Source: Coleofasciculus sp. B1-GNL1-01
Lineage (GTDB): Bacteria; Cyanobacteriota; Cyanobacteriia; Cyanobacteriales; Coleofasciculaceae
Length of the DNA stretch: 58,053 nucleotides
Direction: 5' to 3' (one strand)
NCBI GenBank assembly: GCA_040220235.1
Contig: JAVJTO010000151.1
This document shows, one piece after another, positions 25,837 to 44,179 of this stretch (the first letter of the stretch is position 1; each line of letters begins with the position of its first letter). The translations under genes were made by a program, and so were the position numbers. The notes under the pieces are model-generated. The model saw only the letters and a list, made by a program, of their open reading frames with translations, made no database searches and was not told the origin of the DNA.

Positions 25837-26955
25837 TTATGCCAACCCTTCCACAACCGGATGGAAGTAAAATGCCAACCCCAACACCAAATAAGCCGCA
25901 ATTAGCAAAATTCCTTCCAACCAGTTCGACTTTCCATCCGAACTAATGGAATTAGCGATTAACACCGCTACCGCTACCGCCACCAGTTCAAAGGGGTTAA
26001 AATCCAAATCCATCGGCTGACCCAAAAACCAACCCGCAATCACCAAGACAGGGGCGACAAATAGGGCAATTTGCAAACTTGATCCCACCGCCACCGACAC
26101 CGACAAATCCATCTTATTTTTCATCGCCACTGTCACCGCCGTGGCATGTTCGGCGGCATTGCCAATAATGGGCAATAGAATCACGCCTGTAAACAGGGCA
26201 GTTAATCCTAACTGGGACGTCGCTTCCTCCAACGTCCCCACCAACAGTTCCGACTCTAACGCTACTAGCAGGGTGACTCCGAGTAACACCCCAATCCACA
26301 AGCCTAAATTCACCTTATGTTCTGGTTCCTCCGTGGGGGAAGAAGTACCATCCCCCTCTTGGGATTCAACCTCCACCATGCCCACATCCAACAAATAGCT
26401 GTGGGTTTTCATCGAAAATAATAAGGTGAGAGCATAAACCACAATCAATACCCCCGCCACAGCAACCGATAATCCTTGTAACGTTGCTTCATCAATTTCA
26501 GGCGTTGTAGCATCCATCGCCGTTGGTAGCAGCATGGCAATGACAGCTAAATTCATCGAAGACGCATTCACCCGCGCCACAATCGGTTGAAAGTCCTGTT
26601 CCTTGTAGCGTAATCCCCCCAAAAGCATAGATAAGCCCATCACCAGCAGCAAGTTGCCAATAATTGATCCCGTAATTGTGGCTTTAACCACATTGACTAA
26701 GCCAGCATTGAGGGCAATCAGAGCAATAATCAGTTCTGTCGCATTACCAAACGTGGCATTCAGCAACCCACCAAAGGTAGGTCCTGCTACAACCGCAATT
26801 TCTTCCGTCGCGGTTCCCATCCACGCCGCTAGGGGAACGATCGCCAAACAGGAGGTAATAAATACTATAGCGGCTCCCCATTCCAGAAAATGCGCGGCGA
26901 TGGAAATGGGGACAAAAAGTAACAACAGTGACAGAATCGTGTTTTTGTTCAGCAT
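25837..26955 (-). CDS. cax: Ca2+/H+ antiporter (CAX/ChaA family)
   Basis: Alpha-repeats GLLNATFGNATE and GNAAEH; GSSLQIALF; SNWLEG. Confidence 0.93.
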   Translation of the reverse strand: MLNKNTILSLLLLFVPISIAAHFLEWGAAIVFITSCLAIVPLAAWMGTATEEIAVVAGPTFGGLLNATFGNATELIIALIALNAGLVNVVKATITGSIIGNLLLVMGLSMLLGGLRYKEQDFQPIVARVNASSMNLAVIAMLLPTAMDATTPEIDEATLQGLSVAVAGVLIVVYALTLLFSMKTHSYLLDVGMVEVESQEGDGTSSPTEEPEHKVNLGLWIGVLLGVTLLVALESELLVGTLEEATSQLGLTALFTGVILLPIIGNAAEHATAVTVAMKNKMDLSVSVAVGSSLQIALFVAPVLVIAGWFLGQPMDLDFNPFELVAVAVAVLIANSISSDGKSNWLEGILLIAAYLVLGLAFYFHPVVEGLA

Positions 26956-36588: not shown

Positions 36589-37683
36589 ATGTCGGTTAGA
36601 GTGGCTCCACAGTACATCCGGGAGGTTAAGCAAGCTTATAAACGTCGCTGTCACACTCAGCAACGTTTGGCTGAGGAGTTGGGGATGAACCGAGACACGA
36701 TTAGTAAATTTGTCAATGGCAAGTTCATCAGTTACTCCTACTTCGAGGAAATTTGCCAAAAATTAGGGCTAAATCTGGAAAAAATCGCTGATTTTGAGAT
36801 TGAGGAGAATGAACCGTCAGACTCGTCTGAGCGACTTTCTTCCCTAGAAGAACGGTTGCTGGGGTATGGGGGACTTTCTGATCTTCAATCCCCGTCTAAT
36901 CCGGTAGAACCGCCACCTCAGCACAGGTTTCCGGTTCTGTTTGATCGCATTCTTGAGATTGACTTTAAGGAACAGTCTCAGCGATTTAAACAGGTGATTG
37001 AACTTCAGCGCACCGCAGGCTTTCTGGTTCATGGTGAGCCTTGCTATGGACAGCAATTTTTGCTGAATCGACTGTTGCGGTTGATCCCAGGGCGGCAGAA
37101 TCAATCTCCGATTAAAATTGATGTCAGCTCTAGTGGTGTGGGTAAGAGTATCCCAAACTTGTGGCGAGAACTTACTGCTTGTCTCCAATTAGCCAGAGAA
37201 GCGACACCTACGGAGATTATGGATCGAGTTTGCGATCGCTGGCAAACTCAGGATGTTATTTTTGTCTTCTATACGGTGGATTATATGCCGCCAGGTATGC
37301 TTTCTGAATGGCTACAGGAGTTCTGGGAACCGTTGGTGACAAGAGCCAAGAAAAGTTTACCCCAGGGCGATAAGCATTTGTTGATGTTTCTGGTGGATAA
37401 TTGTGGCAGTGTTGGTCAATCGTCGAATGTTAGGTTAGCTGAGAACTTTGAGCAACCGGAATATCCCTTTCGCTTACCACCAGCGAGTCTATTTCCACGA
37501 GAAGCCCTGGATGAGTGGATAGACAATCTGAGTATGTCGAGCCAACTTCAAATACCGACTGGATTGACTGCCAAAGTTTTGTTAGAACGTTCTAATAACG
37601 GTGTTCCTCACTATGTTTATGAAGAAATATGTAGGCATTGTGGGCTTAGTTGGGAAGGAGTATTGGCAAAATGGTTAATTTAA
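36589..37683 (+). CDS. XRE-like HTH + inactive STAND (iSTAND) protein of a MoxR-vWA ternary conflict system
   Basis: N-terminal TQQRLAEELGMNRDTISKFVNG..FEEICQKLGL; IDFKEQ; degenerate Walker A FLVHGEPCYGQQFLLNRL; EFWEPL; upstream of MoxR and vWA genes. Confidence 0.8.
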   Translation: MSVRVAPQYIREVKQAYKRRCHTQQRLAEELGMNRDTISKFVNGKFISYSYFEEICQKLGLNLEKIADFEIEENEPSDSSERLSSLEERLLGYGGLSDLQSPSNPVEPPPQHRFPVLFDRILEIDFKEQSQRFKQVIELQRTAGFLVHGEPCYGQQFLLNRLLRLIPGRQNQSPIKIDVSSSGVGKSIPNLWRELTACLQLAREATPTEIMDRVCDRWQTQDVIFVFYTVDYMPPGMLSEWLQEFWEPLVTRAKKSLPQGDKHLLMFLVDNCGSVGQSSNVRLAENFEQPEYPFRLPPASLFPREALDEWIDNLSMSSQLQIPTGLTAKVLLERSNNGVPHYVYEEICRHCGLSWEGVLAKWLI

Positions 37684-38579
37684 GCCACCCACTTGCGGCG
37701 AAAGGTAAGCCCTATTACACAGGTAAGCCCATCTCTGAGGAAGCCTGGAAAAAAACAGGAATAGCCCCTTATTTGCCCTCGCCAGAACTGGTTAATGCGG
37801 TGAATTTAGCGATATTTATAGAAAAACGTCCGTTGTTGTTGAAAGGGGAACCGGGATGCGGTAAGACACGATTAGCGGAGGCGGTGGCTTATGAATTAGG
37901 CTTACCTTATGAGCCGTGGTATGTTAAGTCAACCAGTCGGGCGCAAGATGGACTTTACACCTACGATGCGGTGCGTCGTCTACACGATGCTCAACTGGTG
38001 CGGATGGGTGAAAAAAGCCAGTCTCAGGTGGAGAATTTAGAGCATTATATCAAAATGGGGGCATTAGGACGGGCGTTTCAAAGTCATCAGCGCACCGTGG
38101 TGCTAATTGATGAAATTGATAAGGCGGATATCGATTTCCCTAACGATTTGTTGCGGGAACTTGACGAGCAGACGTTTGTTATTGAGGAAACGGGGGAGAA
38201 GGTTAAGGCAGTTTATCCGCCGATTGTGTTTATTACCAGCAATGATGAAAAAGATTTACCGGATGCTTTTTTGCGTCGTTGTCTGTTTCATTATATTGAG
38301 TTTCCGGGGTCAAACCAGTTAGTTGAGATTATTAACGCTCATTTTCCGGCATTGACGCCAGCGTTAGTTGAGGCGGCGGTAGAGCGATTTGCTGAATTGC
38401 GAGAGAAGATGGTGAAGGGGAAGTCGGGGAAAAAGGTGAGTACAAGTGAGTTATTGGATTGGGTGGCGGTGTTGCAGCAGTTTCCCCAGGATGAGGTGTT
38501 AAAGCAGCTTGAGGGAGATTTGCTGTTTCCTGAGGTGTTGTTGAAGAAGTGGGAGGATCATTTGCGGTATTTGAAGTAA
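37671..38579 (+). CDS. MoxR-family AAA+ ATPase
   Basis: RPLLLKGEPGCGKT, YDAVRRLHDAQ, VLIDEIDKADIDFPNDLL, ITSNDEKDLPDAFLRRC and STSELLDW motifs. Confidence 0.94.
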   Translation: MVNLSHPLAAKGKPYYTGKPISEEAWKKTGIAPYLPSPELVNAVNLAIFIEKRPLLLKGEPGCGKTRLAEAVAYELGLPYEPWYVKSTSRAQDGLYTYDAVRRLHDAQLVRMGEKSQSQVENLEHYIKMGALGRAFQSHQRTVVLIDEIDKADIDFPNDLLRELDEQTFVIEETGEKVKAVYPPIVFITSNDEKDLPDAFLRRCLFHYIEFPGSNQLVEIINAHFPALTPALVEAAVERFAELREKMVKGKSGKKVSTSELLDWVAVLQQFPQDEVLKQLEGDLLFPEVLLKKWEDHLRYLK

Positions 38580-38616
38580 TATAAAATTTAATAAATAGAG
38601 AGCCGGGAAATAGAGA

Positions 38617-38667
38617 GCCGGGAAATCAATTTCCGGAACCCAAAGCTAAAACCCGTTTTAACGGGTT
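38617..38667 (-). repeat. Double-hairpin REP-like element, copy A
   Basis: gccgggaaatcaatttccgg-aacccaaagcta-aaacccgttttaacgggtt; 15 bp tandem duplication at 38593/38608. Confidence 0.85.
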
Positions 38668-38750
38668 AGTTATAGAGGAAATCTATAAAAAGTAGAGTAA
38701 ATTGAATATACAATAATGGATTTAATTTATGTTTAATTTAAATTGGCGTT

Positions 38751-39839
38751 ATGAATTATGACGAACTGCCATTGATAGACATTTTTAACAGCCTGCGCCA
38801 GCGCCATGGTTTACCGTTGGGGGTAGATGAGTATTTGGTGGTGGTGCGATCGCTCCAGGCTGGTTTGGGTGTGGGGAGTCGGCTGGAGTTGGAACAGTTG
38901 TGCTGTCTGGTGTGGGCGACATCTGAGGCGGAATGTCAACTGATTCGACGGCTGTTTGAGCAGATGTGGGCGCGTTTGCAAACCAATTCACGGGAAGAGA
39001 GCGATCGCGCATCCCAGGCTTCTGTCTCTCCATCCCCACCCTCTCAACTCGATCAGCCAAATCAGGAGTTAGAGGAATCTCCCCGTAAAACCCTAGACAT
39101 GGATGAACCGGTGCAGGTGGTTCAGGCGGTGCGTCGCTATAAACCGGATAAAGAATTCAAACGCCCCCGCTATATGTTGCTAACTGAATATTTCCCCGTT
39201 ACCAAGCGACAAATGAAGCAAAGCTGGCGTTATTTGCGTCGCCCGATACGGGAAGGAATACCCGTAGAATTGGATATTAAAGCGACAGTGGAAACGATGG
39301 GGCGTCAAGGGATTTTACTGACACCCGTGTTAATTCCGCGTCGGATTAATCGCACAGATTTGGTGTTAATGATTGATCAGGAAGGTTCAATGGTGCCGTT
39401 TCATCGGCTGTCGCGACAGTTAGTTGAAACAGCCCAACGAGGGGGGCGGTTGCGACAAACTCGTGTATTTTATTTTCATGATTATGTTGATGAGTATTTA
39501 TATCCTCATCCCGCCTTGGTGAATGCTCAATTAATGGATGAGGTATTAACAGAAGTGGGGGAACGGGCAGTAGTCTTGATTATCAGCGATGCGGGTGCAG
39601 CACGAGGAAATTTTGATGCTGAACGGGTGAAGCAGACTCAAAACTGGATGGAACGGTTAAAGCAGTCGGTGCGTTATACAGCTTGGTTAAACCCGATGCC
39701 AAATGAGAGTTGGTTATATACAACGGCGGCAGAAATTGCCCATTTTGTGCCAATGTTTGAAATGAGTCGTCAGGGGATGAATGCGGCGATTAGCGTATTG
39801 CGCGGGCGATCCGGGGTTGGGGAGAAAATGTATAGATGA
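38751..39839 (+). CDS. vWA-domain (CoxE-like) protein of the MoxR system
   Basis: ELDIKATV, MIDAS-like LMIDQEGSMVPF, YFHD, ISDAGAARG and AWLNPMP motifs. Confidence 0.9.
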   Translation: MNYDELPLIDIFNSLRQRHGLPLGVDEYLVVVRSLQAGLGVGSRLELEQLCCLVWATSEAECQLIRRLFEQMWARLQTNSREESDRASQASVSPSPPSQLDQPNQELEESPRKTLDMDEPVQVVQAVRRYKPDKEFKRPRYMLLTEYFPVTKRQMKQSWRYLRRPIREGIPVELDIKATVETMGRQGILLTPVLIPRRINRTDLVLMIDQEGSMVPFHRLSRQLVETAQRGGRLRQTRVFYFHDYVDEYLYPHPALVNAQLMDEVLTEVGERAVVLIISDAGAARGNFDAERVKQTQNWMERLKQSVRYTAWLNPMPNESWLYTTAAEIAHFVPMFEMSRQGMNAAISVLRGRSGVGEKMYR

Positions 39840-39904
39840 TGGGTAAATCAAGCCGGAAAATAAATTTTGGGAACCTCAAATTCAAATCTGCTAAACCTAA
39901 ATCA

Positions 39905-39956
39905 AGCCGAGAAATAAATTTCCGGAACCTAAAGCTGAAACCCGTTAAAACGGGTT
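39905..39956 (-). repeat. Double-hairpin REP-like element, copy B (partial duplicate at 39844-39880)
   Basis: agccgagaaataaatttccggaacctaaagctgaaacccgttaaaacgggtt; taaatcaagccg repeated with a 54 bp period. Confidence 0.85.
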
Positions 39957-39986
39957 GAATTATTAGGATGCATGTCAACTTTATAA

Positions 39987-40101
39987 TGGCATGGCACACC
40001 TAACTTGAGGGATTAGAATTACGTCCGAAAACTGTAGGGGCGCACTGACGTGCGCCCAAAAAACCATCAAATCTATTCCACCATTTTAGCTGTATCAGTC
40101 C
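39987..40101 (-). mobile_element. MITE-like element, second copy of the 32335 family
   Basis: Reverse complement aligns with 32335-32450; central gtaggggcgcac..gtgcgccc hairpin. Confidence 0.75.
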
Positions 40102-40227
40102 GCCATCGTGAGGAGAGCGAAGCGTAACGCACTATTACTCAAGGTATCATGCTTATTAAAGCTAACTTATACTATTAGTCAGTATTGCGTCTGTCTCAAT
40201 TCCCAATCCCAATCCCCAATCAAAATC

Positions 40228-41645
40228 ATGGCAACAACGAACCAAGAACGAGAAAAGCGAATCGCTGTTGAGCGGATTGTTGGATTTGCCAAACAATTTG
40301 GGGAAGCCCATCTAAATCTAGCTTGTCACGCCGCATTTCCTCTAGTTCTCACCCCTGACTTACTCTACCAAATTTGGGCAACCTTCATCCCGGAAACACC
40401 TTGGGCGGCGGTAGCGCGGGTGCTGCTGTCGCGTTTATGTCGGCAGGTTGGCTATGAGATGTATGAGATGGATATTCCGGTTCGCAATCTGTTACTCAGA
40501 GAATTGAAAGAACAGTTTGGGCAGCAAAGATTGGAGGAATTGGGTGCATTTTTGATTGATTATGTAGCGCAGCAGCTTACTGAATATGATCCGGCTACGC
40601 AAGATTTACGAGAGGCGCAGGAATGGACGGCGTTGGCGTATACGCAACCTGCTGAAGCAGGGCGAAAATTGGCAGAGGTTCTCAGTGAAACTGTGAAAGG
40701 AGAGAACATAGATAAGCTGAAGGAATTGTCTGCGCGGTGGTTGAGTTGACTCGCATTGGTCGTCAGGCAAATGAACAGCAATGGTATAAGGGAATTGCTT
40801 ACCGTTTAATCAGTGAATTACGACTTGCGTCTCGGTTCAATTGGCGACAGTGGTGGGCTGAGCATGAATCTTTATCGCCTGTACAACGCTTAGGTAAGTT
40901 TATTGAGGAAGTCTTGTTAGCTATTATTCCTCAACCCATTGTTATTTTTATCGATGAAATTGATTGTCTACTGAGCTTAAGTTTTCCGACTGATGATCTT
41001 TTTGCCCTAATCTGCCACTGCTATAACAGACGTGACCAGAATCCAGAGTACAAGCGTTTGACGTTTGCGCTGTTGGGTGTAGCCACGCCCTCTGATTTGA
41101 TTCAAGATAAGACAAAAACACCTTTTAATATTGGTCAAGCGATTGAATTACGTGGTTTTAGCCTAGACGAAGCGATGGCGTTAACACGGGGATTAGAAGG
41201 TAAAGTAGAAAAGCCTCGATCTGTCCTCAGAGAAATTCTGAAATGGACAAACGGTCACCCTTTTTTGACTCAAAAGCTTTGTCGGATTACCCAAATGATT
41301 ATCTATACTATTCCTGCTGGTAGTGAAGCACAGAACATCAAAAACTTAGTCAGGTCGCAAATCATTGAAAATTGGGAAGAAAACGATCATCCTGAACATC
41401 TGAGAACCATTCGCGATCGCATAGTCAAAAGTAATAAGATTGGTGCAGAATCATTACTTCGCTATTATCAGCAAATTTTACGAATAGGAGAAATATTAGC
41501 TGATGATAGTCCTGAGCAAAAAGAATTATGCTTATCAGGTTTAGTGGTTAAGCGCAATGGTAAGTTAACGGTCTAAAATTTAATTTATAAATCTATATTT
41601 AATAAGGATTGGGTCAAAGATGAGTTAGCCAAAATTTCTAGGTAA
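40228..41645 (+). pseudogene. Disrupted effector gene: conserved N-terminal domain fused to an AAA_35-like STAND domain (frameshift/deletion plus nonsense codon)
   Basis: ORF1 40228-40749 (LACHAAFPLVLTPDLLYQIW..YEMDIPVRNLLL). A second frame begins abruptly at AEGIVCAVVELTRIG with Walker B IFIDEID and WTNGHPFLTQKLC but no Walker A. TAA at 41574 is followed in frame by NLIYKSIFNKDWVKDELAKISR*. Confidence 0.8.
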
Positions 41646-41744
41646 AAACTGAAATCAGTATTCCCGATATCTTGCCTAATGGTCATCAAATTAATGGGGT
41701 GTATAAAACACGCGATCGCACCCTCCATAATCATTCTCTCTACC

Positions 41745-41915
41745 AACCCGTTTTAACGGGTTTCAGCTTTGAGCCGGAAATTTATTTCCAGGCTAAATCT
41801 TGTGGCGAGAAAGACCAACTTGTTGTAATGGCTTTCGCCTCTGGCTAAATCTTATGGCGAGAACGACCAACCCGTTTTAACGTTTGCCTTAGCTTTGAGG
41901 AAACGTATTTCCAGG
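41745..41915 (+). repeat. Double-hairpin REP-like elements, copies C (41745-41794) and D (degenerate, 41869-41915)
   Basis: aacccgttttaacgggtttcagctttgagccggaaatttatttccaggct; 29 bp duplication at 41791/41843. Confidence 0.85.
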
Positions 41916-41924
41916 AGTAATCAC

Positions 41925-42344
41925 TCACTTATTCACCTCAAAATCCCGTTCCAACGCGGGAATTGCCGTGCCATTTAAATGGTGCGTCTTCTGGTTTAGC
42001 ACATAAGCCTTCGCCTCTTCCAACTGTTTACCTCCCAAAGTAAACACCCCATATCCGTGCTGCCAACTAAACGCCAAAGAAGAAGCCGATGGCTGATGAT
42101 TCAAATGATACGCACTACTCCCTTTAATTGTCTTGACAAAATCGGCAACGGATAACTTTGGAGGAATTGAAACCACTAGATGAATATGATCCGCCATACC
42201 GCCAATCCCATGGAGAATACAACCAATCCCATCAGCCTTGCCAATAATATAACGGTATAATTCAGATTCTCGCTCTGGAGTAATCAGAGGTTGACGGGAT
42301 TCTGTTGCCCAAATGATATGGTAGTAGGTGCGCCATAAGGACAT
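41925..42344 (-). CDS. Stand-alone HUH (Y1) transposase, IS200/IS605 TnpA-like, probably REP-associated (RAYT-like)
   Basis: YYHIIWAT, HUH motif DHIHLVV, KTIKGSSA, WQHGYGVF and catalytic YVLNQKTHH; no tnpB; flanked by multiple palindromic repeats. Confidence 0.9.
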   Translation of the reverse strand: MSLWRTYYHIIWATESRQPLITPERESELYRYIIGKADGIGCILHGIGGMADHIHLVVSIPPKLSVADFVKTIKGSSAYHLNHQPSASSLAFSWQHGYGVFTLGGKQLEEAKAYVLNQKTHHLNGTAIPALERDFEVNK

Positions 42345-42357
42345 TATTTTTACAGAA

Positions 42358-42450
42358 GTGAGCTAGGAAATAGGTGAGCTAGGAGGTGAGCTAGGAGGTG
42401 AGCTAGGAAATAAATTTCCAGCTCAAAGCTTAAACCCGTTAAAACGGGTT
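42358..42450 (-). repeat. Double-hairpin REP-like element, copy E (42401-42450), with 4x GTGAGCTAGGA
   Basis: agctaggaaataaatttccagctcaaagcttaaacccgttaaaacgggtt; tandem units at 42358, 42374, 42386 and 42398. Confidence 0.85.
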
Positions 42451-42564
42451 CAAAGATTTACCAGAGCCGATAAACGTGTGATTATTATGAATAGTGTTGT
42501 GCCTAATCGAGATTATACCTTATTTCTCTGTGGGCTAAGATCTCAGAGCGATCGCGTCAGCACC

Positions 42565-42805
42565 AAACCGGGAACCTGTCAGTGAGTAAGGCTTTCAACC
42601 CGTTTTAACGGGTTTCAGCTTTTAGCCGGAACTTTAGTTCCAGGCTTAAATCAACGCCACTCACTACTTACTTAAATGGCTCAAAACCGGGAACCTCTCA
42701 GTGAATAAGGCTTCCAACCCGTTTTAACGGGTTTTAGCTTTTAGCCGGAACTTGAGTTCCAGGCTTAAACTGACTGACGCCACTCACCACTTAATTAGCT
42801 CAAAA
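42565..42805 (-). repeat. Two ~119 bp tRNA-linked tandem units, each holding a double-hairpin REP (copies F 42597-42646, G 42716-42765)
   Basis: aaaccgggaacct.tcagtga.taaggctt.caacccgttttaacgggttt.agcttttagccggaactt.agttccaggcttaaa...acgccactcac occurs twice, directly abutting the tRNA-Pro 3' end. Confidence 0.88.
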
Positions 42806-42879
42806 TCGGGATGACAGGATTTGAACCTGCGACCCCCTCGTCCCGAACGAGGTGCGCTACCAAGCTGCGCTACATCCCG
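42806..42879 (-). tRNA. tRNA-Pro(CGG)
   Basis: Reverse complement CGGGATGTAGCGCAGCTTGGTAGCGCACCTCGTTCGGGACGAGGGGGTCGCAGGTTCAAATCCTGTCATCCCGA. Confidence 0.97.
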
Positions 42880-42950
42880 TAATATCTCATCCATCCTACC
42901 ACAGACTTGCTAGGATTAACACTGGTACTTTCGTGGGAGCATGTTCAGGA

Positions 42951-43829
42951 GTGGTCGTTAAACCTGAATGGTTAAGAGTCAAAGCACCGCAATGGCAGCG
43001 TGTGGGCAACGTTAAGGATATCTTACGGGATTTGGCACTGAATACCGTTTGTGAGGAAGCCTCTTGTCCCAATATCGGTGAGTGCTTCAATGCTGGCACT
43101 GCTACCTTTTTAATTATGGGACCTGCCTGTACCCGTGCCTGTCCCTACTGCGATATTGATTTCGAGAAGAAACCCAAACCCCTTGATCCTACAGAACCTA
43201 CCCGATTGGCGGAAGCGGTAGGGCGACTGAAACTTCAGCATGTGGTAATTACTTCGGTGAATCGGGATGATTTACCTGATGGGGGTGCTTCTCAGTTTGT
43301 CCATTGCATTGAAGCGATTCGCGCTATCTCGCCTCAAACCACCATCGAGGTATTAATTCCAGATTTGTGTGGCAATTGGGATGCCCTAGAAACCATTCTC
43401 CAAGCTAAACCCGAAGTCCTCAACCATAATACCGAAACCGTCCCCCGACTCTATAGACGAGTACGTCCTCAAGGAGATTATCCGCGATCGCTTGAACTTC
43501 TTCAACGCACTCATGAACTCGCCCCCTGGATTTACACCAAATCTGGCATCATGGTGGGATTAGGCGAAACTGACGCCGAAGTGCGCCAAGTTATGCAAGA
43601 TATGCGAGCCGTCAATTGTGATATTCTCACCATTGGGCAATATCTTCAACCTACTCAAAAGCACTTAGGTGTGACTGACTTTATCACCCCAGAACAGTTT
43701 GATATGTGGCGAGAGTTTGGCGAATCTATCGGCTTTCTACAAGTTGTCTCCTCTCCCCTCACCCGCAGTTCCTATCATGCTGGAGAAGTGAGATCATTAA
43801 TGAAGCGTTATCCCCGACAAGCGGTGTAG
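42951..43829 (+). CDS. lipA: Lipoyl synthase (likely GTG start at 42951)
   Basis: [28 protein letters not shown] radical-SAM motif and RSSYHA. Confidence 0.96.
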
Positions 43830-43879
43830 GGTGTGGGGTGTGGGGTGTAGGGAACAATTAAACCCATCTCGCGGCTCAA

Positions 43880-44028
43880 TAAGTAGTCGGACAAAAGAAA
43901 ATGGTACTGTATTAAGTTTTACAAATCGCCCTCAAACCCTTACTGTTCCCTGTGACACACCGAGCGCAGCCGAGGTGTTCCCTGTTCCCTGATCTCAACC
44001 GTTAAGTTTAATTGTGTCCACCTACTTA
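43880..44028. mobile_element. MITE (34229 family) carrying TGTTCCC STRR units and an SDR5-like insert
   Basis: taagtagtcggacaaaagaaaa ... tgtccacctactta. Confidence 0.78.
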
Positions 44029-44111
44029 GTGATTAAGAACTTGGACGCCAGAAAATGCATTTCTTCCAGCCTAAAGTTCAAGTAAGCTTTAGCTGACTCG
44101 GTAAATCTTTG

Positions 44112-44179
44112 AACCCGTTTTAACGGGTTTTAGCTTTTAGCCCGAACTTTAGTTCAGGGCTGACTTTAGTTCAGGGCTG
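44112..44179 (+). repeat. Double-hairpin REP-like element, copy H, with 17 bp duplication overlapping the DUF3593 stop codon
   Basis: aacccgttttaacgggttttagcttttagcccgaactttagttcagggctg-actttagttcagggctg. Confidence 0.85.

Follow-up and report, generated by a model that had tools for sequence, protein, structure and literature searches.

A single-copy Y1/HUH nuclease gene of Coleofasciculus and its double-hairpin repeat family, with one-sided duplications that may mark cut sites

The window examined here, a 58,053-nucleotide stretch of DNA from Coleofasciculus sp. B1-GNL1-01 (GCA_040220235.1, contig JAVJTO010000151.1), carries the gene of a 139-residue Y1/HUH nuclease set among copies of a double-hairpin repeat, most of which are accompanied by local duplications. 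It is contig C151 of the source genome, G000, a HIP1-rich cyanobacterial assembly of 8.66 Mb. In the following, G001 to G007 are the relatives used for strain comparison, C-numbers are contigs of G000 and L-numbers are loci of homologous genes. Gene matches and covariance-model matches were surveyed in 61 related cyanobacterial genomes, among which kin do not count as independent.

The nuclease gene (41925..42344, minus strand) is identified by its motifs, its predicted fold and its single copy. The open reading frame (ORF) is intact and matches PF01797 in a profile search. The protein passes the NCBIfam IS200/IS605 model (89.9 bits for a cut-off of 55) and fails the RAYT model NF047646 (22.8 bits for a cut-off of 80). 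It carries the motifs DHIH, W94 Q95 and YVLNQKTHH (Y114-x3-Q-x2-HH); among 18 sequences, Y114 and H121 are invariant and Q118 and H122 nearly so. The predicted fold (pLDDT 89.7) is nearest to the TnpA proteins of IS608 and ISDra2, TnpAREP coming only at rank 30. Y1 TnpA proteins of this fold form dimers. By its motifs, the protein fits TnpAY1 subclass 1.2; it is not a RAYT, and not an ordinary IS200 transposase either. Its nearest named homolog, from Coleofasciculus sp., is 96% identical, and the loci of close homologs include Chloroflexota and Desulfobacterota records. In a tree of 51 proteins, it groups with Bacteroidota and clade-B relatives, the placement of the long IS200 rows being unsure; since the IS200 and RAYT rows of G000 are long-branched and the IS200 rows do not form one clade, this tree neither dates nor roots the domestication. 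Clade B is a second branch of subclass 1.2 type (34-40% identical), represented by G000:C84:79563-79943 and loci L076-L083.

The gene occurs once in G000, where the next match is a 36% identical paralog, and gives 0-3 matches per genome across the survey set. Ratios of dN/dS between 0.05 and 0.23 in seven homolog pairs support purifying selection. No tnpB lies near the gene, and two ORFs of G000, which we presume from their position to be TnpB-like, matched nothing in the window or at 83 homolog loci. The initial annotation had described an intact, stand-alone Y1 gene with a non-RAYT C-terminus, as is indeed found. It had also proposed a domesticated HUH nuclease with its own repeat class; this agrees with the non-RAYT sequence, the single copy, the apparent purifying selection and the proper repeats, except that this type of protein was already described. 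Contigs from two DNA and two RNA public runs span the gene and carry no evidence on its expression, and a promoter scan at the locus gave only chance-level hits. Besides this gene, G000 holds six RAYT genes above the NF047646 cut-off (on C7, C24, C71, C116, C147 and C149), each flanked by a different repeat family, as well as three IS200/IS605 tnpA genes and two genes of subclass 1.2 type.

The repeat element, of about 50 nt, is made up of hairpin 1 (7 bp, TTNA loop), a linker of about 10 nt ending in TNAG, and hairpin 2 (9 bp, TTNA loop). Eight copies (38617, 39905, 41745, 41869, 42401, 42597, 42716 and 44112) and six duplications had been placed in the window, and all their coordinates were verified. 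Seven copies fold as two hairpins in DNA (z -2.4 to -6.3), whereas copy 41869 has decayed and fails to fold (z -1.75). One element lies upstream of the gene with hairpin 2 facing it (42401..42450, minus strand; also in G003 and G005). Tandem units of 12-16 bp, composed of the 3' end of its hairpin 2 and the flank (42358..42408, minus strand), stop 14 bp before the start codon; their copy number varies between strains, and these leader repeats differ in length among contigs from the public runs. Downstream of the gene, pattern and fold define an element inverted with respect to the upstream one (41745..41794, plus strand). Next to it is a decayed tandem array (41791..41915, plus strand), which strain comparison resolves into a spacer, a heavily decayed copy, a second spacer and the decayed copy 41869, and which has two units in G003 and more in G004 and G005.

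Strain comparison likewise delineates two intact elements (42597 and 42716) in a whole-element tandem of 119 bp (42565..42797, plus strand), at a site where G003 has five or more 171-bp units. The element at 39905-39956 is accompanied by a decayed, partly deleted tandem copy with a period of 54 (39844..39956, minus strand) and is single in G003. The element at 38617-38667 carries a 15-bp duplication of its hairpin-2 end (38593..38667, minus strand) that is common to G007 and absent from G002, G003 and G005. In these last two copies, the foot of hairpin 2 has the variant GGTTCC. Finally, the element at 44112..44179 (plus strand) has a 17-bp duplication running from the hairpin-2 loop into the flank, with microhomology ACT. 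Its inverted partner, of the AGTAAG sister type by pattern (44050..44098, minus strand; hairpin 1 at 44081-44098), had been overlooked; the two form a REPIN-like doublet that is missing at this site in five relatives. The six duplications therefore exist, and strain comparison separates them into two kinds: three short ones that start in hairpin 2 and reach the flank (at 38593, of 15 bp; at 42358-42408, in units of 12-16 bp; at 44146, of 17 bp) and three of a whole element with its spacer (119 bp, intact, at 42565/42684; decayed at 39844/39898 and 41791/41843). A tRNA-Pro(CGG) gene (42806..42879, minus strand), recognised by Rfam, serves as synteny marker. A further window match at 25981 was dropped as unrelated sequence.

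Although it is true that the window holds no further copies, the repeat is not local as had been supposed but a genome-wide and order-wide family. There are 84 copies of the AACCCG type in G000 and 107 of nine sister types, which have other hairpin-1 stems with the same linker and geometry. Before the linker filter, hairpin-1 matches to the ten patterns numbered 222 in the real genome and 49 in the reversed genome. Copy density does peak at the gene: the densest 5.6 kb of G000 is this locus, with seven copies, the next having four, in tandem arrays. None of the 84 copies lies inside an ORF of at least 120 aa, and orientation relative to genes shows no preference (17 same-strand, 29 opposite, 20 convergent, 15 divergent). 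An inverted partner stands just upstream of 25/84 copies, and 14/84 are in whole-element tandems.

The two-hairpin structure is borne out by covariation. An alignment of 28 elements, taken from the window and from 16 loci of homologs, shows changes on both sides in 12/16 pairs, and covariation was 0.55 as compared with 0.21 after shuffling and at most 0.10 after sliding, in a structure where one mis-set pair (38-55) contributes one cell; a second analysis agrees. Only covariation was used from alignment A2, because its elements were chosen as double hairpins and the percentage paired is inflated by that selection. Both loops are mostly TTNA in the 28 elements, and the AG before hairpin 2 is invariant (28/28), within a TNAG foot whose T, A and G do not vary. 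The initial annotation had seen no canonical foot, which is correct in that the foot is not literally GTAG but misses the TNAG that precedes hairpin 2. GTAG or ATAG feet are confined to the repeats of clade B, whose cyanobacterial paralogs have a double hairpin of their own with a linker ending in GTAG/ATAG (69 pattern matches in G000).

The repeat accompanies the gene across genomes. Apart from the locus of the window itself and one duplicate row, which were excluded, the covariance model of the repeat, R1, matches 27/29 loci of homologs at least 50% identical, including 11/13 that were not used in building it, and 0/52 distant or clade-B loci. Full-length R1 hits are concentrated near the gene, 82/97 lying at most 500 bp away, in 27.6 of 111.8 kb. 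At L059 and L065, intact close homologs have no element within 1.5 kb on either side. In the survey set, every one of the 22 genomes that carry a close homolog has 19 or more R1 hits, the counts being capped at 92. The median is 15 for the 39 genomes without a close homolog, nine of which have none, so that the repeat family is present in 52/61; all nine genomes without R1 hits also lack the gene. In the starred clade of the protein tree, seven of eight rows are flanked by AACCCGTT-type repeats, as against 0/22 other rows of the wider clade, and this co-sorting counts as one event because it is confined to one clade. Around the gene, the nearest pair of elements is inverted in 10/15 two-sided loci and on the same strand in 5/15, with 1 to 7 elements per locus. 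Because most nearest pairs are inverted and the numbers vary, the arrangement is REPtron-like and not IS-like. These data support the conclusion that the gene is tied to its own repeat class, the subtype following the protein clade.

The gene is patchy in the genus; its neighbourhood is conserved within lineages and different between them. Synteny at the tRNA-Pro gene is accordingly partial. G003 and G005 carry the gene at the same site, G004 has kept the downstream array and lacks the gene, and in G001 the whole block between a radC-like gene and tRNA-Pro is absent, with a fused remnant of repeats in its place; at the gene site, the contigs of G002, G006 and G007 are broken. Most element sites are old and common to strains. 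In a subset of 100 element sites from four relatives, 63 have a syntenic pair in G000 and 37 do not. Element copies seem to move rarely, since 54/63 of these syntenic sites are occupied and the other nine, truncated or messy, have no clean junction. The duplications, for their part, vary between strains at shared sites (C18, C61, C81, C108 and C168).

A duplication had been reported at every site. Short duplications are indeed present at 5/7 copies near the gene, but at only 12/81 distant ones (p=0.003, post hoc); counting whole-element duplications as well, 19/81 distant copies are affected. Sister types in G000, where their gene is absent, are duplicated in 2/115 cases, and random positions, scored with a stricter detector, in 28/1500. 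A flank-swap control (51/611; 16/199) was discarded because the flanks hold duplicated copies of the same repeat family; random positions and the opposite ends of the elements were used instead. The suspected polarity is clear: duplications are found at the 3' end of hairpin 2 in 15/86 cases and never at its 5' end, with two artefacts at hairpin 1. Across genomes, sister-type elements sampled as 80 regions from the top-scoring R1 hits, not as a random draw, are duplicated in 8/73 cases in five gene-bearing genomes vs. 0/76 in eleven gene-less ones (p=0.003). Against a uniform null, and with a few rows that are related events, C|T is compatible with the upstream junction of 15/32 distinct events where 5.0 are expected (by subtype, 10/19 for 3.6 expected and 5/13 for 1.4 expected). 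Of nine dinucleotides, no other is enriched in both subtypes. Breakpoints of the AACCCG type concentrate at the loop edge and those of sister types at the foot, tracking the position of C|T. Runs of hairpin-2-end duplications also stand beside homologous genes in other genera, at L002:1-150 (8 or more 18-bp units), L007:5480-5700 (three 69-bp units), L063 and L066.

One-sided duplications and C|T bias fit a strand-specific nicking putatively guided by the TNAG foot, and the duplicated side probably marks the cut site of the enzyme. We favour, with moderate confidence, a partnership of REPtron type whose enzyme comes from the IS200 side, with the duplications as by-products that mark cuts; cleavage is deduced here from footprints. 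The resident single-copy subclass 1.2 TnpA would bind the folded top strand of the element when it is single-stranded. It would be guided by the AG of the TNAG foot and would nick at C|T, either within hairpin 2 or close to it. When two such cut sites are joined or repaired to each other, the outcome could be a duplication from loop to flank, a tandem of the whole element or, in rare cases, a copy at another site. The repeats outlive the gene as orphans. A benefit to the host is no part of this reading.

Several observations weigh against such a partnership. The copies near the gene are the very set that suggested the idea, and six of the eight sister-type events come from G024, which reduces the comparison to 3/5 vs. 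0/11 genomes. The junctions of 17/32 events do not fit C|T. Among the 63 syntenic sites, there is no clean empty site or insertion junction. Elements are also numerous where the gene is missing: of the 39 genomes that lack a close homolog, 19 contain 19 or more of them, and G002 and G006 hold 69 and 66 AACCCG copies without this gene type. Lastly, the GTAGGGGCGCA repeats, a canonical GTAG family of repetitive extragenic palindromes (REPs) unrelated to the double-hairpin element (199 in G000, one of them at window positions 40035-40065), are duplicated at the 3' end in 21/199 cases and at the 5' end in none. The rate at distant double-hairpin copies does not exceed theirs (12/81 vs. 21/199, p=0.31), and to that extent the duplications are no more frequent than at another repeat. 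The GTAGGGGCGCA duplications run from loop to flank with little microhomology, and their junctions fit C|T in 2/24 cases, both long-overlap artefacts; none of the six RAYT loci of G000 is flanked by GTAGGGGCGCA repeats. Of the other REP families of G000, GCGAGC is duplicated at both ends in about 10% of cases and three families in at most 1%.

These GTAGGGGCGCA data, with loop-to-flank duplication free of C|T and of a flanked RAYT in G000, also argue for the strongest rival. It accepts the partnership but makes the duplications enzyme-free: the polymerase would slip at the folded hairpin and re-anneal at microhomology, so that loop to flank is copied twice. The sequence CTT does occur both at the edge of the hairpin-2 loop and at the GGGCTT foot, and the commonest event, seen at several sites, is one 13-bp unit with CT(T) microhomology. 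In the same direction, the AACCCG subtype has a bulge and this microhomology, which the sister subtypes lack. On the other side, duplications are absent from hairpin 1, which is perfect, and from the 5' side of hairpin 2; three other REP families hardly duplicate; sister elements duplicate in gene-bearing genomes and not in gene-less ones; and breakpoints move to wherever C|T lies (C12, C61 and the sister foot). We consider enzyme-free slippage rather unlikely, while giving it real weight.

Alternatively, the gene could belong to an ordinary, slow IS200-like element, whose ends would be the flanking hairpins and whose non-autonomous end relics, PATE- or MITE-like, would be the scattered copies. 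The NCBIfam score, the fold nearer IS608 and ISDra2 than TnpAREP, the patchy occurrence of the gene with different neighbourhoods per lineage, and the same-strand pairs at 5/15 two-sided loci speak in its favour. But near-identical multiple copies are found in 0/61 genomes, the two or three matches of some genomes differing widely in identity to the query; the neighbourhood is kept within lineages; the two presumed TnpB-like ORFs have no match at 83 loci; and variable element numbers with mostly inverted pairs are not what fixed ends would give. This makes a slow insertion sequence improbable. A role of the repeats as RNA elements of the host, either terminators or stabilisers, with the gene nearby by chance, is largely refuted and very improbable: all 84 copies avoid ORFs of at least 120 aa and three hairpin-1 copies score terminator-like, but there is no orientation preference, no Rfam family, and the repeats cluster tightly at homologous genes across phyla and co-sort with the protein clade.

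The partnership between nuclease and repeats can be taken further, as a tentative proposal that we would not back at even odds. Subclass 1.2 would represent a second REP-type domestication, on the IS200 side. Its cyanobacterial enzyme would recognise a two-hairpin substrate, possibly with one hairpin per dimer subunit, would cut at C|T via an internal TNAG, and would duplicate DNA locally and strand-specifically, most strongly close to its own gene. If this were true, the 12-bp units of the leader would be self-inflicted variable-number changes that may tune the expression of the gene, and one-sided duplications would offer a general in-genome read-out of HUH cut sites.

Other features surround the locus. 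An HTH-iSTAND gene, a MoxR-like AAA gene, a vWA gene and a short AAA_35 gene stand in a row at 36589-41576, with elements between the genes; the block is missing in G001, and we assume that it resembles a MoxR-vWA conflict system. The reading frame of AAA_35 is interrupted by a stop at 41574; contigs from public runs have other letters there. A separate inverted-repeat element of about 150 bp, with many copies in the genus, lies at 43881-44028, and a copy of it adjoins the 38650-site element in G002, G003 and G005. Six copies of the double-hairpin repeat (on C6, C16, C47, C55, C158 and C170) have a hairpin-like insert of about 26 nt in the 5' arm of hairpin 2, always at the same position; on C97 it is doubly nested. 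This insert is polymorphic between strains (C18, C63), a related one is found inside clade-B repeats, and it presumably resembles the small nested SDR elements of cyanobacteria. The SDR elements of Elhai et al. 2008 reportedly have units of 21-27 nt.

At the locus, Rfam gave no family above threshold except the tRNA. Six hairpin-1 18-mers had no occurrence in a full-text library of papers, and no description of this element was found in the literature searched, including the accessible portions of Di Nocera 2013 (PMC3733652) and Delihas 2011 (PMC3184786); supplements outside those portions and Elhai 2008 could bear on its novelty. New here are the double-hairpin family of cyanobacteria, the way its subtypes sort with the clades of the enzyme, and its C|T footprint. 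These bear on how REP-type repeats arise and spread and on what their single-copy nucleases do. For a previously uncharacterised Y1 subclass, they provide a candidate substrate and an in vivo footprint; TNAG is predicted as the guide and C|T near hairpin 2 as the place of cutting, which a single oligonucleotide assay can test. The published view of subclass 1.2 as repeat-less is also corrected, with a family present in most of the related cyanobacterial genomes surveyed.

Compared with known systems, the protein shares with the TnpA of IS200/IS605 elements (IS608, ISDra2) the fold, the layout of HUH and catalytic tyrosine, and a hairpin with a 5' guide tetranucleotide. It differs from this subclass 1.1 in having no multi-copy transposon, no tnpB and no fixed left and right ends. 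With TnpAY1 subclass 1.2, as presented in the accessible sections of Quentin, Siguier, Chandler and Fichant 2018 (PMC6006769), it has in common the DH[IV]H, WQ and Y---Q--HH motifs, short length, low copy number, divergent paralogs and a cyanobacterial host (Cyanobacteria/Bacteroidetes). Those sections list neither an associated REP nor terminal structures, whereas the present gene has REP-like repeats. “IS200 Group 3” of Bertels, Gallie and Rainey 2017, RAYT-like, without duplicates and with abundant flanking 16-mers in the part of the article available (PMC5581495), may be the same group as subclass 1.2; compared by description only, lack of duplicates and abundant flanking 16-mers are also found here. 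Unlike RAYT/TnpAREP, the protein has no Y---NP motif and fails the RAYT model, and its repeats have two hairpins with TTNA loops and a TNAG foot inside the element, where the RAYT class has a 5' GT[AG]G foot. As far as the consulted portions of PMC3479197 and PMC8266576 describe it, TnpAREP cuts single strands at C|T via the AG of the 5' GTAG foot and links a 3'-OH with the phosphotyrosine at the 5' end; REPIN clusters repeated in tandem together with their flanks are likewise known (PMC3116915, in part). The resemblance to REPtron and RAYT-REPIN-BIME systems, within the portions available of PMC3479197, PMC8266576, PMC3116915 and PMC3733652, is that of a single-copy HUH gene amid its own intergenic repeats, with inverted doublets, tandem arrays including flanks, orphan repeats, and an AG foot associated with C|T junctions, here as a junction enrichment only.

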